Virus record (IMG/VR): IMGVR_UViG_3300045988_118194
Coordinates: 1-64,000 of that record
Direction: 5' to 3' (one strand)
DNA from: a virus
DNA: 64,000 bases
Position numbers and translations under genes: made by a program. A model generated the notes under the pieces. The model ran no database searches. It saw nothing but the letters and a program-made list of their open reading frames with translations, and was not told the DNA's origin. Each line of letters opens with the position of its first letter. The stretch's first letter is position 1. Shown one piece after another: positions 12,377 through 17,998 of the stretch.

Positions 12377-12688
12377 TTGTGCTATTATCAATCAAAAAAA
12401 TGTAAGAAGATGGGCAGATCAACAGAGTACTACAGGACTCATCCCGAAGCCAGGAAGAAAAAGGCTAAAAAAGACAAGGAGATAAATGCCAGACCGGAAC
12501 AGAAAGCCAAACGCCGGGAGCTTGGTCGTAAAAACTACGAAACGGACAAGAAGAAGGGCAAGGGCTGGAGGAAAGGCAAGGATTGTTCTCATACCAAGAA
12601 CGGTCTTAGGTATAAATCAGTAAAAGCTAATAGGGGATCCAAGTCGGATACGAAAGGTGACAAAAATGCAAGAGGAGATAGCAAATAG
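12377..12688 (+). CDS. very basic Lys/Arg-rich small protein (possible nucleic-acid-binding). Could be an AT-rich frame artefact.
   Basis: Fills an otherwise 300-bp gap. More than 35% K/R. Confidence 0.3.
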   Translation: MCYYQSKKCKKMGRSTEYYRTHPEARKKKAKKDKEINARPEQKAKRRELGRKNYETDKKKGKGWRKGKDCSHTKNGLRYKSVKANRGSKSDTKGDKNARGDSK

Positions 12689-13790
12689 GATAGATATAAG
12701 AAGGATATTCAAGACCTCTAAACAAGTTATGGAAGAGGCGTATGAGAATATCTTGAAATACAGGCGGGGAGAGCTTATCCCCGCTAAAACCGGATACGAT
12801 TATATTGATGAGGCTTTGCTTGGAGGTATTTTCCCTCAGCATGCTATTGCCATAGGAGCCCGGCCATCTGTAGGTAAATCGTATGTGGCCCAAAAGATAT
12901 TGGAAAATGTGATGAATCCGATGATCAACCCGCAAGCAGAAGATTATTTTCTTGTTAATTGCGAGTTCGAAATGAATCCTCAAGATCTTCTTCTTCGTAG
13001 AATGAGCCAGGATATGAAAAAGCGGGCTCCTGAAATATTAAGAAGGCAAGATTCTAATACAGTAGAAGAGATGAGGATGTTTGAAATCCTTCAAGGTGAA
13101 ATCAGGAATAATATAATATACATCGATGCTCCGTGTACGGTAAAAGAGTTTGAGGCGGCTGTGTATCATATAGCTACCAAACATAAAGACAAACGTCTTA
13201 TAATATTTAAAGTCGATCATATTGCTTTGATAAAAAGAATGGGGTTAGATCCTAAGTCGGCTATAGATGATTTGGTGGCGGTTATGAACGAAGCTAAATT
13301 AGTATATAAAAACATATTTTTCCTCATCATATCCCAATTCAACAGAGAGATAGAAGGAAGGATAAAAAGCCCACAAGAGCAGCCTCCGCGTCTTTCTGAT
13401 TTTTACCAGTCTGATACGCTGGGTCAGTTATGTACGTTAATGATAGGTTTGCACAATCCTCGTAGGTACGGGCTGGATAAGTATATGATATTTGGGAAAG
13501 ATTGGTATCAGACTCTTGATAGGTTTAAAACTGAAAACAAAACATCATTCAGGACAGCCGGACTGGTGTTTCATCATATACTGAAGGTAAGGCAAGTTAG
13601 TATGGAAGAGCTTACTAATACAATCCACCCGGAGATCCTGCCAGGGCATGGATGGATGTACGGGGAGGGCGGGACGAAGTTCGTGAACCCCAACCAGCCG
13701 CCGACTCCGCCCAAGCTCTATACTGTGGAAGACGTTACAGACAATCAGGAACAAGAACAAGAGACAAAGGAAGAACAGTCATTGTATTAA
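12657..13790 (+). CDS. replicative DNA helicase, DnaB-like (RecA-fold C-terminal domain)
   Basis: GYDYIDEALLGGIFPQHAIAIGARPSVGKSYVAQ matches the DnaB Walker A region. Walker B-like LIIFKVDHIALI. Pro-rich C-tail. Confidence 0.65.
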   Translation: MTKMQEEIANRIDIRRIFKTSKQVMEEAYENILKYRRGELIPAKTGYDYIDEALLGGIFPQHAIAIGARPSVGKSYVAQKILENVMNPMINPQAEDYFLVNCEFEMNPQDLLLRRMSQDMKKRAPEILRRQDSNTVEEMRMFEILQGEIRNNIIYIDAPCTVKEFEAAVYHIATKHKDKRLIIFKVDHIALIKRMGLDPKSAIDDLVAVMNEAKLVYKNIFFLIISQFNREIEGRIKSPQEQPPRLSDFYQSDTLGQLCTLMIGLHNPRRYGLDKYMIFGKDWYQTLDRFKTENKTSFRTAGLVFHHILKVRQVSMEELTNTIHPEILPGHGWMYGEGGTKFVNPNQPPTPPKLYTVEDVTDNQEQEQETKEEQSLY

Positions 13791-13804
13791 AAAAAATAAG
13801 AACC

Positions 13805-14407
13805 ATGAGACTAACAGTAGAAGAAAACGAATACCTGATAAGTAAGTTCCTTTTGGTTCTTACTGAGTTTGCAGGGGATGAAAGAGAGATGTTTTTAATC
13901 AACTCCATACATGATAAGGCGGTGGCGGATATGAATTATCGTCTTCCGTCTTTAATAAGCAGAGAACGTAAAAGACGAGTTATTGAGCTCCTTAAAGAAG
14001 GAACCAGAATAATCAAGGACTTTTCTGGTTATGCAGGTGATATGGGGATGATTAACGAATACGATCGTCTAAAGAAAGAAATAGGAACCGTCCAAGACCA
14101 GCTTGGTGACGTAGAAGGTCAACTTCGGGCAGCAGGAGAAGTTATTAAAAAAGAACTTGATATGATTGCTGACCGAATAAAAGAAGATCTTCTTGATCGG
14201 GAACTGGCTAAAAGTAATGCCGAGGCTGAAAGAAAAGCCAAAGTAGATCCGAGATACGAAGTAGCTTTAGGTGATTACAAGGAGATGCTGGAAGTAATTT
14301 TTACAACCAGAAACAAGTATTCTACGGTAGATTCTGTACATGACGATCTTCGACAGTCGGTATCTACCGGTAGAAATTCGATTATCAAAGAAGGATACAA
14401 CAGTTAA
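13805..14407 (+). CDS. hypothetical coiled-coil protein (track ORF 13652..14407 overlaps the helicase; first plausible ATG at 13805)
   Basis: ORF. Heptad-like charged region. Confidence 0.4.
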   Translation: MRLTVEENEYLISKFLLVLTEFAGDEREMFLINSIHDKAVADMNYRLPSLISRERKRRVIELLKEGTRIIKDFSGYAGDMGMINEYDRLKKEIGTVQDQLGDVEGQLRAAGEVIKKELDMIADRIKEDLLDRELAKSNAEAERKAKVDPRYEVALGDYKEMLEVIFTTRNKYSTVDSVHDDLRQSVSTGRNSIIKEGYNS

Positions 14408-14622: not shown

Positions 14623-15336
14623 ATGTACATCAATTTCAGACAACTTGCAGCATCAGACATGACTCCTAATGATCTTGCTAATCTTCTTGCCATAAGACAG
14701 AAGGATACGGTTATGATCGAAGCCATGCCGGAAGAAGATGCTGGGAGATATATAGAGCTTGGCCTGGTTGAGAAATTAAAATCAGGCGTGATGAGATTAA
14801 CCAACAAAGGAACGTCTTTTGTGAATTATATAGAGACACCGGAAATGACGGACGAGGTTCTGGAAACGTTGAAGATTATGATAGGAATGTACGAATCATA
14901 TTCAAAAGACATAGGTGTCAGCAGAAAAGAAGCGGAATCCAGATTGTGTTGGTTTATGGGTAACACCTCATTCAAGAAAAAGGTCATACTTCAGGTAACG
15001 GAATCTTATATAGCAGAGTCAGGAGATTATACAATGAGCTTATGTAACTTCATATGGAAACCGCCTTCTCAGGCTTTTTCAGTCCATATGAACCTTAAAA
15101 ATTCAAAGCTCTTTGACTTAATAGCTGAAAAATTTAAGATCGCTACCGAGCCTTATTTGGAGTCTAAGAAGAATAAGGAAATGGATTGGTTGTTTGCCGT
15201 ATCTAAATTGCCTACGCCGCCGGCTAAAGGAAATCCGGATTATTTGTTTACCGGAAGTTCGGAAACAGACAAAGAGCGATTGAAAAACATAAAAACGTAT
15301 TTATTTAACAAAATTAGAAAGCAATGGAAAAAGTAA
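14623..15336 (+). CDS. hypothetical protein (237 aa)
   Basis: ORF immediately upstream of the ACP homolog. Confidence 0.45.
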   Translation: MYINFRQLAASDMTPNDLANLLAIRQKDTVMIEAMPEEDAGRYIELGLVEKLKSGVMRLTNKGTSFVNYIETPEMTDEVLETLKIMIGMYESYSKDIGVSRKEAESRLCWFMGNTSFKKKVILQVTESYIAESGDYTMSLCNFIWKPPSQAFSVHMNLKNSKLFDLIAEKFKIATEPYLESKKNKEMDWLFAVSKLPTPPAKGNPDYLFTGSSETDKERLKNIKTYLFNKIRKQWKK

Positions 15337-15575
15337 GAATCAGAAAGATAATAGAGGATATAATTATTACTCAGTTTCTTAATTCGGAAATAGATATAGT
15401 TCATGAAGAAGATGTGACGTTTAAAGAACTTGGATTAGATTCTGTTGATCAAATTGAACTGGAAGTGATGGTGGAACAAAAATTCAATATTGTTATTATT
15501 GATTATGATATGGAGACCATCAAAGATATGACTGATCTTGTTTACAAAATAATAACAGAAGGGTATGGGAAGTGA
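15324..15575 (+). CDS. acyl carrier protein homolog
   Basis: 83-aa acidic protein. FKELGLDSVDQIELEVMVEQKFNI matches the ACP phosphopantetheine-attachment region (DSL/DSV serine). KIIED at the N-terminus also parallels ACP. Confidence 0.6.
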   Translation: MEKVRIRKIIEDIIITQFLNSEIDIVHEEDVTFKELGLDSVDQIELEVMVEQKFNIVIIDYDMETIKDMTDLVYKIITEGYGK

Positions 15576-16059
15576 CATAATTTTATGCATGGCTTTAATA
15601 GCGTCATTTGCTTTTGTTATACAGTTTTTGTTGTCGATATTAGGATCTGATCTGGATACGGATATTGACATTGACAGTGCTTCTGATTTAAGTATGTCTT
15701 TGTCGGACATCATATCATTCAAGGGCATAACACATTTTATTCTTGGATATAGCTGGACTACCTACTTTTCGGGTTCCCATTTAGTAGGGGTTGTGATAGG
15801 GTCGTTTTTCTTTATCGTTTTGTTTTACGTATATAAGTTACTTCTTAAGTTAAAACAAGAAATGGTGTACGAATGTCCGGAAGATTTAAATGGCAGAGAG
15901 GTGGAGATAGTATTTAGATCAGGGAAGAATCATTATATGGTAAATATTTCGAAAAATGGAAGACAAGAGCAAATGAGAGTAAGATGCTTGTCTGGAAAAA
16001 CCTACAAAAACGGCGACAAGGCGAATATAAAATATGAAGAAGGAGAATTAAGTATCTAA
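15565..16059 (+). CDS. NfeD-like membrane protein (short form: N-terminal TM helices plus a C-terminal soluble beta-domain)
   Basis: Two or three hydrophobic helices, then a soluble C-terminal region. Lies directly upstream of the flotillin gene, as in bacterial nfeD-flotillin operons. Confidence 0.45.
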   Translation: MGSDIILCMALIASFAFVIQFLLSILGSDLDTDIDIDSASDLSMSLSDIISFKGITHFILGYSWTTYFSGSHLVGVVIGSFFFIVLFYVYKLLLKLKQEMVYECPEDLNGREVEIVFRSGKNHYMVNISKNGRQEQMRVRCLSGKTYKNGDKANIKYEEGELSI

Positions 16060-16090
16060 TTTTTTTATCAACAATTAAATTTTAAAAGTT

Positions 16091-17791
16091 ATGACAACAA
16101 TCATGTACGTGTCAGCTATCTTAGCTGTAGTGATTATTTTGACAATCATCGGAGTCTTATCAAGGTATCGTAGATGTAAGCCTAATCAAGTCTTGGTCGT
16201 TTATGGTAAGACAGGTGGGGAAAAGAAATCGGCGAAATTATATCATGGTGGAGCGGCATTCGTCTTGCCTATTATTCAAAGCTATGATATTTTGTCTATG
16301 GAGCCTATGCAAATAGATTGTAGGCTCACCGGTGCTTTGTCGTCTCAAAATATCAGAGTGGATGTACCTACTACTATTACAGTAGCAATCAGCACAAATC
16401 CTGAAATTATGCAGAATGCAGCAGAAAGGCTTTTGGGGATGGATACTGAATCTACTGAAAATCTTATTACGGATATCGTTTATGGCCAAATGCGTTTGAT
16501 CATTGCTGAAATGACGATTGAAAAACTTAATTCTGACAGGGATGAGTTTTTGGATAAGGCAAGAAAAAACATTGATAACGAACTTAATAAGTTAGGCCTT
16601 TACCTCCTAAATATCAACATCAGTGACATCAGAGACGAAGCCGGCTATATCATGAATCTTGGCAAAGAAGCTGAAAGTAAGGCCCTGAACGAAGCACAGG
16701 CTAATATCGAAGAACAGGAAAAGCTGGGTGCTATTAAGATTGCTGTACAGCAAAAGGAAAAAGAAACGGCTGTAGCTAATACCCAAAAAGAGCAAGAGAT
16801 TCAAATTGCCTATACTGAAAAAGAAAAGGAAACGGTAGTAGCTGAAACAAAGAAAGAAAAAGAAGTAGCTTTGGCTTTAACCGATAAAGAAAAACAGATC
16901 GGTGTAGCTCAAGCCGATAGAGATAGGGCTGCGGTTATTGCAAAGACTTTGGCTGACAAAGAATCGGCGATTGCAAGATCTAAGGCAGAACTTGAGGTAA
17001 ACAAAGCTGAGGCTGAAAGAATGGAAGAAGTCGGAAAGAATAAGGCTGAAGCTGACAAGGAAGCGGCTATAGCAATACAAGACTCTGAAGCTCAGATTAA
17101 GAAGGCTGAGGCTGAGAAAAATGCGTCTATAGGATACAACAATGCCCAGAAGGAGGTTGCTGTGTCAGTATCAGAACTACAGATCATCAAAGCTCAATCA
17201 GAAAAGAAGGCCGGAGAAGAAAAAGTTAAATCGGAAGCGGCTGTAAAAACAGCAAAAGAGCTTGCCGACAAAGAAGTGGAAGAAGCTAAGGCTAAGAAAG
17301 TTCAGGCTGCGCTTAAGGCTGAAAAGATTGTGCCGGCTGAAACCCAGAAGGAAGAGGCTATCTTGCAAGCTGATGCTGAAGCAGAAAAGATTAAACGCCG
17401 GGCTGCCGCTGAAGCAGCAGCCAATTTGGCAAAAGCAGAAGCCGAAGCAAAGGCTATTAAGATGAAGTTGGAAGCAGAAGCCGAAGGTAAGAAAAAGTCG
17501 TTAATGGCAGAAGCCGACGGATTTAAGGCTATGGTGGAAGCAGCAGAATCCAATCCTCAGATAGCCATCCAGTACAAGATGGTTAATCAGTGGAAAGAAA
17601 TTGCTGGAGAACAGGTTAAGGCATTTGAGCACATTAACCTCGGAAATATCACGGTATTTGACGGCGGTCAGAACAGTACCGGTAATTTCCTTAACAATGT
17701 TGTTAAGACCGTCGCTCCGGCATTGGGAGTCATTGATCAGCTTCCGATTGCAGATACTTTAAAGAAGCTAAAAGGAGATGACAAAAAATAA
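16091..17791 (+). CDS. SPFH/band-7 flotillin-like protein (YqiK/FloA-like)
   Basis: N-terminal TM helix. SPFH-like CKPNQVLVVYGKTGG...GGAAFVLPIIQSYDILSMEPMQIDC. Long Ala/Glu/Lys coiled-coil repeat region typical of flotillins. Confidence 0.75.
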   Translation: MTTIMYVSAILAVVIILTIIGVLSRYRRCKPNQVLVVYGKTGGEKKSAKLYHGGAAFVLPIIQSYDILSMEPMQIDCRLTGALSSQNIRVDVPTTITVAISTNPEIMQNAAERLLGMDTESTENLITDIVYGQMRLIIAEMTIEKLNSDRDEFLDKARKNIDNELNKLGLYLLNINISDIRDEAGYIMNLGKEAESKALNEAQANIEEQEKLGAIKIAVQQKEKETAVANTQKEQEIQIAYTEKEKETVVAETKKEKEVALALTDKEKQIGVAQADRDRAAVIAKTLADKESAIARSKAELEVNKAEAERMEEVGKNKAEADKEAAIAIQDSEAQIKKAEAEKNASIGYNNAQKEVAVSVSELQIIKAQSEKKAGEEKVKSEAAVKTAKELADKEVEEAKAKKVQAALKAEKIVPAETQKEEAILQADAEAEKIKRRAAAEAAANLAKAEAEAKAIKMKLEAEAEGKKKSLMAEADGFKAMVEAAESNPQIAIQYKMVNQWKEIAGEQVKAFEHINLGNITVFDGGQNSTGNFLNNVVKTVAPALGVIDQLPIADTLKKLKGDDKK

Positions 17792-17868: not shown

Positions 17869-17998
17869 CAGTGCTTTACTAATTACGATATTTTTAACAT
17901 GGATTTTGGACAAGATTTAGAACCAGAAGAACTGACCAAGCATTATGATCAGTGTTATGGAATTGATTTTGAAACAGAAGAAGAGGAGGACGAAGAGT

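Follow-up and report, generated by a model that had tools for sequence, protein, structure and literature searches.

Flotillin–NfeD operons are widespread in bacteria, and their physiological role is still debated. The locus described in this work raises the question of what such an operon may be doing in a phage. The window analysed is a stretch of 64,000 nucleotides (nt), positions 1 to 64,000 of the IMG/VR virus record IMGVR_UViG_3300045988_118194, and it carries on its plus strand, at 15565-17791, two neighbouring genes that encode a 164-amino acid (aa) membrane protein and a 566-aa flotillin. The reading that we favour, with a probability of about 0.7, is that this region would be a functional, host-derived two-gene membrane-scaffold unit in an epsilon crAss-like gut phage, acting by a mechanism deduced from the known SPFH–NfeD systems. 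A previous reading of the sequence only had recognized here an nfeD–flotillin gene pair, and this proposal holds: the flotillin is identified by profile and fold, its partner is homologous to YuaF, and the same pair is present in 79 of 80 Bacteroidales loci. Both open reading frames (ORFs), the shorter one running from ATG to TAA, also lie exactly where they had been placed (Table 1). However, the 10-nt overlap described between them was a mistake, as the 164-aa ORF stops at 16059 with a TAA and the flotillin begins with an ATG at 16091. The actual short overlap, 11 nt long (ATGGGAAGTGA), is between the preceding ORF, which resembles an acyl carrier protein (ACP), and the start of the 164-aa ORF.

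Hidden Markov models (HMMs), sequence and fold all assign the 566-aa protein to the flotillins. The protein matches the Pfam Band_7 and Flot models above their cutoffs, its hydrophobic residues 1–28 are directly followed by a basic RYRRCK motif, and its SPFH domain aligns to residues 8–200 of human flotillin-2. Residues 190–480 are composed of 57% Ala, Glu and Lys and are predicted to be almost wholly helical, with about seven 11-residue repeats at residues 216–300. The C-terminal PF15975 domain hardly varies between phage copies, nor does it in the single Bacteroides-type sequence included in their alignment. Pfam, hydropathy and composition therefore agree with the architecture first described for this protein, an N-terminal transmembrane helix, an SPFH core and a long tail rich in Ala, Glu and Lys. 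The best solved relatives found by phmmer are human flotillin-2 and flotillin-1 (E values of 1e-22 and 1e-17), in the cages 9bq2 and 9l3g determined by cryo-electron microscopy. The AlphaFold2 (AF2) model, made from an 8-sequence alignment and with a predicted local distance difference test score (pLDDT) of 50.6, was used for fold-family assignment and not for geometry; it contains a helix at 2–25, an alpha/beta domain at 34–177, then about 320 residues of helix. The top 44 PDB matches of this model in Foldseek are all SPFH proteins, ranks 1–4 being the flotillin complexes 9l3g and 9bq2 (E about 1e-10), and after the flotillins come prohibitin, HflK/C, stomatin, erlin and QmcA. Profile matches, solved flotillins and fold search, which all lead to SPFH, argue against a generic coiled-coil protein devoid of an SPFH fold. 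The cutoff of the NCBIfam FloT equivalog (NF058507), 700 bits, was not reached by the phage protein (146 bits, 1.7e-42), and the Bacteroides thetaiotaomicron flotillin is also under it (153 bits). With a score so far under the cutoff, the 566-aa protein is a flotillin but no FloT orthologue. It has no PHROG family and matches none of the 5,027 defence models of PADLOC-DB 2.0 at E<=0.1.

The assignment of the 164-aa protein as an NfeD2/YuaF-type partner goes through remote homology rather than through a direct model match. Taken alone, it has no match in Pfam (even at E<=10), NCBIfam, PHROGs or the 5,027 PADLOC models. Hence, the HMM search that the sequence-only reading had put forward as a check succeeded for the 566-aa protein, with Band_7/SPFH, and failed for the 164-aa protein, for which no NfeD model was matched and which was reached only through the profile of its family. 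Hydropathy and the AF2 model (pLDDT 73) are in keeping with the N-terminal transmembrane helices and soluble C-terminal domain previously noticed: segments 1–30 and 67–96 are strongly hydrophobic, a third helix is predicted at 52–69, an acidic DLDTDIDIDSASD loop lies behind helix 1, and a five- to six-stranded beta domain is modelled at 112–163 with a pLDDT of about 80–87. A word-indexed homologue search yielded, apart from many truncated or fused fragments, nothing but close relatives from phages. A 4-sequence profile of the family gave no PDB match, and an exhaustive search with it of 1.84 billion representative proteins returned 414 clusters (E<=1e-3), mostly of 155–190 aa. In the alignment of 86 family members the conserved elements are FxIQFxLS, the acidic DxDxDxD loop and SFKGxxHF, then LVGR where the beta domain begins and GD.V close to the end, with the D/T/D/D/I/D and SFKG..HF motifs invariant across the family.

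The profile of these 86 members had as its best match among 177,635 PDB sequences YuaF (2k14), with a marginal E value of 0.03. Compared by hhalign with a profile of the Bacillus subtilis-group YuaF, it gave a probability of 92.5% and an E value of 4.9e-7 over 94 columns that extend from the last of the membrane helices through the whole OB domain, the YuaF side being a shallow profile of seven proteins (effective number of sequences, 1.3) from a search with a 70-residue YuaF fragment. The comparison with Escherichia coli YbbJ gave an E value of 1.1e-3, covering membrane helices and OB domain. This homology to YuaF and the OB-type barrel of the model speak against an upstream ORF that would lack an NfeD-like beta domain. 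The Pfam NfeD model (PF01957) does not match the window protein; two of the 86 members match it at 6e-5, and no other Pfam family recurs among them. One YuaF-group protein (P0311), whose identity to the soluble domain of YuaF is 93%, likewise stays under the threshold of this model (18.8 bits against a cutoff of 29.1), so that failing is normal for flotillin-associated NfeDs and the test is insensitive for them. Actually, NfeD2 proteins were defined by architecture, structure and operon context, and not by sequence similarity, because that similarity is very weak (Hinderhofer et al., 2009; PMC2636767). The 164-aa protein and its family have the NfeD architecture described there, N-terminal hydrophobic helices followed by an all-beta OB-type domain in about 140–170 aa, and an SPFH neighbour is found in the phage, at 79 of 80 Bacteroidales loci and in a second phage lineage. 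Membership of the YqiJ family in the Pfam sense was rejected: neither YqiJ_N (PF21001) nor YqiJ_OB (PF07290) matches the 164-aa protein, E. coli YqiJ reaches about 1e-15 on both, and hhalign of the family profile against YqiJ gave an E value of 0.035 and a probability of 1.5%.

The window region is 96% identical to GenBank OR575929.1, the human gut phage crAssE-Sib (151,256 bp), which carries genes for terminase, portal, major capsid protein and tail proteins, a diversity-generating retroelement and tRNAs. The trio formed by the ACP-like ORF and the two genes is already annotated publicly in that record, as 'acyl carrier protein', 'transmembrane protein' and 'flotillin family protein'. crAssE-Sib was classed as an epsilon crAss-like phage of the Crassvirales, its hosts were predicted from spacers of clustered regularly interspaced short palindromic repeats to be Bacteroides, Parabacteroides and Porphyromonas, and its lifestyle was considered to be perhaps persistent or pseudolysogenic (PMC11054128); flotillin is nowhere mentioned in that paper. 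The pair lies within a co-directional replication block, in the order primase/helicase, DnaB-like helicase, 237-aa ORF, ACP, NfeD-like protein, flotillin, PD-(D/E)XK exonuclease and helicase. The phage setting initially proposed is thus borne out by the structural genes of the 96%-identical phage and by the position of the pair in the replication block, with matches far beyond chance. A prophage or a misassembly with host DNA was ruled out by synteny across many phage contigs of 145–155 kb.

The origin of the two genes was approached by a scan of bacteria, with one genome per GTDB species, that recovers only sequences sharing two exact peptide patterns. It yielded 80 loci, all in Bacteroidales (Bacteroides, Phocaeicola, Parabacteroides, Prevotella, Leyella and Xylanibacter). 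Their flotillins are 62–67% identical to the phage flotillin and collinear with it over nearly the full length, and at 79 loci a homologue of the 164-aa protein (30–41% identity, full length) stands immediately upstream, in the same order; at the remaining locus just 50 nt of sequence is present upstream of the flotillin. Flotillins from different genera are 84–94% identical within the bacteria, against 65–70% with the phage. Neighbour-joining trees are parallel in topology for flotillin and partner, and each places the phage sequences on a sister branch that excludes every Bacteroidales sequence sampled. The adjacency of the genes in Bacteroidales and these trees indicate that the two genes were taken as a unit from a Bacteroidota genome, and the transfer to the phage would have occurred either long ago or from an unsampled lineage. 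Some Bacteroidaceae/Phocaeicola genomes contain two partner–flotillin pairs (metagenome-assembled genomes HGM04771, loci L056 and L068, and SRR15730521_bin.29, loci L029 and L061), one of which belongs to a divergent 'P. vulgatus' type, whose branch arises close to the base of the bacterial sequences. A 659-aa Bacteroides-type flotillin from ENA (P0299) contains about 100 SPFH residues twice; a true tandem duplication and an artefact of assembly are both conceivable.

The pair has been kept in the phage. In IMG/VR, the best 80 of 171 relatives all carry intact ACP, NfeD-like and flotillin genes, with a flotillin identity of at least 97% and on contigs of up to 154 kb. A second, more divergent epsilon lineage, represented by at least 210 collection blocks on scaffolds of up to 150 kb, has a block composed of a 237-aa ORF, an ACP, a 166-aa NfeD-like protein and a 568-aa flotillin, with a PD-(D/E)XK nuclease further on. 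The same pair, which the sequence-only reading had proposed to look for in related phages, is thus present in both sets. Between the two lineages, identity is 83% for the flotillin, 81% for DnaB, 78% for the exonuclease, 81% for the helicase and 63% for the partner. In the first lineage, the ratio of nonsynonymous to synonymous substitution rates (dN/dS, pooled Nei–Gojobori), computed on best full-length matches and hence biased to intact copies, is 0.036 for the flotillin, 0.060 for the partner, 0.046 for DnaB and 0.051 for the exonuclease; 52/52 and 65/66 unique full-length alleles are intact. The pair is thus under purifying selection as strong as that on the phage helicase and exonuclease. 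A search of IMG/VR with a B. thetaiotaomicron-type flotillin returned, besides this phage clade, a single 25-kb contig with 95% identity, in all likelihood host DNA, and among 50,697 GenBank phage records the full-length pair is present in crAssE-Sib only. In these collections, the complete NfeD–flotillin unit was found in the epsilon crAss-like clade only.

Natural variants of the pair were also found. Several metagenomic proteins are in-frame fusions of about the first 112 residues of the NfeD-like protein to about the last 90 of the flotillin, and one of them was verified in two ENA samples, on a 32-kb contig and on a 76-kb scaffold (loci L166 and L167, 4001-4591) that are otherwise syntenic. 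Its 196-aa product results from a deletion whose junction shows a short microhomology (GATTTAA...GGTGGA). Further variants with a fusion or a frameshift occur among the metagenomic homologues (P0009, P0013, P0028, P0031, P0033, P0046 and P0047). The helical region of the flotillin (residues ~212–449) varies by in-frame insertions and deletions of 33–88 residues, the proteins of the phage clade ranging from 408 to 595 aa, and part of this length variation may be an assembly artefact in the repeats. Since the helical region is the wall in SPFH cages, the height of the cage could differ among variants.

By analogy with the bacterial systems, the following mechanism can be proposed. In the infected cell the flotillin would insert into the inner membrane through its N-terminal helix and would oligomerize via its long helical region and C-terminal domain, forming a domed cage on the cytoplasmic face of that membrane. 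The OB domain of the partner would bind the flotillin cage and promote or stabilize the oligomer. Cages of this kind have precedents in the flotillin cages 9bq2 and 9l3g, in HflK/C and in QmcA–YbbJ, the last described as an assembly of 26 heterodimers (PDB 8z5g; Tan et al., 2024, as cited in PMC13086221), S. aureus FloA–NfeD stabilizes unfolded membrane-associated proteins without ATP (PMC11222466), and SPFH2 and NfeD2 co-evolve in operons (PMC2636767). The phage pair could supplement or replace the host flotillin scaffold, and the resulting scaffold would keep the organization of inner-membrane proteins and proteostasis running at no ATP cost during a long or persistent crAss-type infection, protecting the membrane-dependent steps that the phage needs until release. 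We attach a low certainty to this purpose of supplementing or replacing the host scaffold during long infection, and the purposes named in the sequence-only reading, a replication compartment, superinfection exclusion or lysis timing, are likewise speculative. Nevertheless, as a globally abundant gut phage family has long kept a diverged pair under replication-gene-like selection, it can be argued that the scaffold matters during infection.

Several observations weigh against the view of a functional, host-derived scaffold unit. The in-frame deletion verified in two samples (1,631 bp, window positions 15900-17530) removes the OB domain of the partner and most of the flotillin, and, as it occurs in syntenic phage contigs, the pair is dispensable in at least some settings. 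The flotillin model is of low confidence (pLDDT 50.6), the 164-aa protein has no match of its own in Pfam, NCBIfam or PHROGs, and the set used for dN/dS consisted of best full-length matches, in which intact copies are favoured. The search for a donor lineage reached only sequences that share two exact peptide patterns. Finally, everything beyond the identity of the genes is deduced.

A different role would be the hijacking of the host scaffold, in which the phage flotillin would co-assemble with the host protein into mixed cages and re-program or poison host flotillin functions such as client selection, envelope-stress signalling or access of membrane proteases. Co-assembly is conceivable because the phage and host flotillins are 65% identical; they are collinear over their full length, and the SPFH core and the C-terminal oligomerization domain are near-invariant. 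The much greater divergence of the partner (30–41% identity) would fit a changed specificity, and the helical region is polymorphic and differs in length from that of the host. However, the phage supplies its own cognate NfeD partner and both proteins are under purifying selection, which fits a self-sufficient unit better than a dominant-negative subunit, and we consider hijacking unlikely.

A larger unit can also be imagined, in which the 237-aa ORF, the ACP, the NfeD-like protein and the flotillin would constitute a phage-specific membrane-remodelling module that builds a dedicated microdomain, with a lipid or acyl moiety perhaps delivered via the ACP. The 237-aa ORF may belong to the same unit as the three genes that follow it: it has no Pfam or PHROG match, it is 97–100% identical in the IMG/VR copies and 77% identical in the second epsilon lineage, and its dN/dS is 0.052. 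The ACP-like ORF, which in addition to its Pfam match reaches PHROG 5934 'acyl carrier protein' at 2.1e-8 and the NCBIfam ACP models at about 1e-7 (all under cutoff), appears to be translationally coupled to the NfeD-like gene through the 11-nt overlap. It occupies the same position in both epsilon crAss lineages, with a dN/dS of 0.37, and between lineages it is too diverged for a tblastn match, yet the DSL motif is kept. There is no ACP at the 80 Bacteroidales flotillin loci, and no phosphopantetheinyl transferase or acyl-transfer enzyme was identified near the ACP-like ORF. Such a module is in our opinion rather improbable; if it existed, its microdomain would serve to organize the replication or assembly of a crAss-type phage, or would make possible the long-term carrier-state infection that is typical of Crassvirales, and bacteria would offer here a first case of an SPFH compartment built by a virus.

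Superinfection exclusion or membrane defence was considered as well. The cage would here alter the inner membrane of the infected or carrier-state cell so that DNA injection by a competitor is blocked, or that membrane-targeting abortive-infection effectors of the host are blunted. The pair is accessory, predicted to be membrane-located and dispensable in some natural variants, as would fit a competition gene that is useful under certain conditions, its neighbours are early/replication genes and not structural or lysis genes, and a persistent or pseudolysogenic lifestyle is suspected for epsilon crAss-like phages (PMC11054128). On the other hand, core-gene-like conservation in both epsilon lineages is unusual for competition genes, which turn over fast, and neither protein matches any PADLOC model. 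To our knowledge, no superinfection-exclusion protein belongs to SPFH, which we also count against this role, and we regard it as quite unlikely.

That the pair would be a neutral passenger, a piece of host DNA without function in the phage life cycle, is disfavoured by the data on selection and retention. The propagation of natural deletion variants and the absence of any PHROG phage family holding these proteins would agree with it, but the dN/dS values of 0.04–0.06 equal those of the replication genes, both epsilon lineages retain the pair with core-gene-like divergence, the phage proteins form a deep sister branch that is not nested in the host clade, and the unique full-length alleles are intact with a single exception; we judge it very improbable. 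Lastly, a coiled-coil virion or structural protein next to an unrelated small membrane protein such as a holin, which the long Ala/Glu/Lys helical region and the weak, sub-threshold holin-family matches of a few Bacteroidales partner homologues through their membrane helices might evoke, can be dismissed, as the SPFH and Flot domains are significant, all top fold matches are SPFH, and the pair is orthologous to a chromosomal bacterial operon and sits within the replication block, a long way from the genes for structure and lysis.

Around the pair, the flotillin gene is closely followed by a perfect GC-rich inverted repeat without a T-run behind it on the plus strand, then by 124 nt without a long ORF, the next listed ORF beginning at 17945. 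This hairpin is possibly the end of a transcription unit or an RNA-stabilizing structure. A scan for sigma-70 promoters and terminators gave counts equal to the shuffled expectation, the consensus being unsuited to Bacteroidota. Further upstream, the ORF of the DnaB-like helicase (12657-13790) and the next one (13652-14407, plus strand) share about 139 nt, which they read in different frames; the second is 251 aa long as listed and GenBank annotates an equivalent coding sequence, but it may begin at a later ATG, related contigs calling a 200-aa product. Over the window as a whole, GC skew and AT skew flip sign at about 28 kb, from positive (1–28 kb) to negative (28–64 kb), where the coding strand switches between the replication block and the structural genes.

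Table 1. Position of the flotillin gene, its NfeD-like partner and the surrounding features in the window
Feature	Position	Strand	Basis or remark
Conserved ORF, 237 aa, first gene of the conserved block	14623..15336	+	Overlaps start of ACP ORF by 13 nt
ACP-like ORF, 83 aa, with LGLDSVD phosphopantetheine-attachment motif	15324..15575	+	Pfam PP-binding, E 6.8e-6
NfeD2/YuaF-like membrane protein, 164 aa	15565..16059	+	Family-profile homology to YuaF
Membrane part of NfeD-like protein, residues 1-100	15565..15864	+	AF2 helices 2-25, 52-69, 72-100; hydropathy
C-terminal OB-type beta barrel of NfeD-like protein, residues 112-163	15898..16053	+	
Spacer between NfeD-like gene and flotillin gene	16060..16090	+	31 nt, AT-rich
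Flotillin, SPFH2-type, 566 aa	16091..17791	+	Pfam Band_7 and Flot
N-terminal membrane anchor of flotillin, residues 1-28	16091..16174	+	Hydropathy 2.83 (Kyte-Doolittle); AF2 helix 2-25
SPFH/Band 7 domain of flotillin, residues 30-211	16178..16723	+	PF01145, E 2.5e-25, 90 bits vs 23.6-bit cutoff
Ala/Glu/Lys-rich helical region of flotillin	16724..17437	+	Composition, repeats, AF2 helices 180-504
C-terminal domain of flotillin, residues 450-559	17438..17767	+	PF15975, E 2.5e-9, 37.7 bits vs 27-bit cutoff
Perfect 8-bp GC-rich inverted repeat, GGCCCAAG-GTTACA-CTTGGGCC, 6-nt loop	17799..17820	.	8 nt after flotillin stop

Part of this picture was already available, namely the GenBank annotation of the flotillin and the existence of SPFH genes in other phages and in giant viruses. 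What is new is the recognition that the 'transmembrane protein' beside the flotillin in GenBank would be its NfeD partner, the proposed Bacteroidales origin as a two-gene unit, the presence of the pair in both epsilon crAss lineages with a core-gene-like constraint, and the natural knock-out and length variants. A diverged but complete pair, a polymorphic helical region and natural knock-outs that can be tracked in metagenomes provide a natural experiment on SPFH function, and the origin of the pair gives a host-range clue, Bacteroidales, for uncultured epsilon crAss-like phages. In the papers that we found, viral SPFH proteins are only noted, their role being called unclear, and our search found no characterized phage flotillin, in agreement with the sequence-only reading, whose author knew of no such system.

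SPFH proteins of other viruses provide a first comparison. They include the 'flotillin family protein' of Vibrio phage KIT04, proteins of Rhizobium phage Pasto, Streptomyces phage StarPlatinum, Vibrio phage pVa5 and phages GIB1 and X1, and many Band 7 proteins of giant viruses. Among these only KIT04 has the long form of the flotillin type (473 aa), and none is related to the Bacteroidales-type pair. In KIT04, a T5-like phage, the gene directly before the flotillin (L168, 2680-2928 and 2929-4350) encodes an 82-aa protein that consists of membrane helices only, contains a DLDD motif and lacks an OB domain. This protein might represent an NfeD-like partner that was truncated, in a phage of unrelated ancestry.

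Among bacterial systems, E. coli QmcA–YbbJ (SPFH1–NfeD1) and S. aureus FloA–NfeD are precedents for an SPFH oligomer with a bound NfeD protein. QmcA and FloA belong to a different SPFH subfamily, stomatin-like, short and without the Flot C-terminal domain that the phage pair possesses, and the roles of these two systems were demonstrated for bacterial copies only. The E. coli yqiJ–yqiK operon follows the same logic: YqiK (553 aa) aligns along the whole phage flotillin with 24% identity (E 3e-20), but YqiJ matches Pfam YqiJ_N and YqiJ_OB, which the phage partner does not. In B. subtilis yuaF–yuaG (NfeD2–FloT), which represents the SPFH2/NfeD2 class (PMC2636767), an NfeD2-type partner likewise lies upstream of the flotillin, with a sequence identity of only about 15% between the phage partner and YuaF. 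The likeness is much closer with the chromosomal pairs of Bacteroidales, a 165-aa membrane protein next to a flotillin of ~550 aa, such as that of B. thetaiotaomicron (L021, 3471-3968 and 3989-5647). There, the same two genes follow each other as in the phage, on one strand and with just 20 nt between them, the flotillin being 65% identical over 561 residues and the partner 35% over its whole length. Bacteroidales and phage partners have in common the FxIQFxLS, DxDxDxD, SFKGxxHF and LVGRE motifs. In the phage version the helical region of the flotillin is longer by 22 residues (two 11-residue repeats), and the pair is preceded by an overlapping ACP gene that is missing from the Bacteroidales loci. 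In conclusion, sequence comparisons place the phage unit in the known SPFH2–NfeD2 operon class, with the chromosomal pairs of Bacteroidales as its closest relatives.

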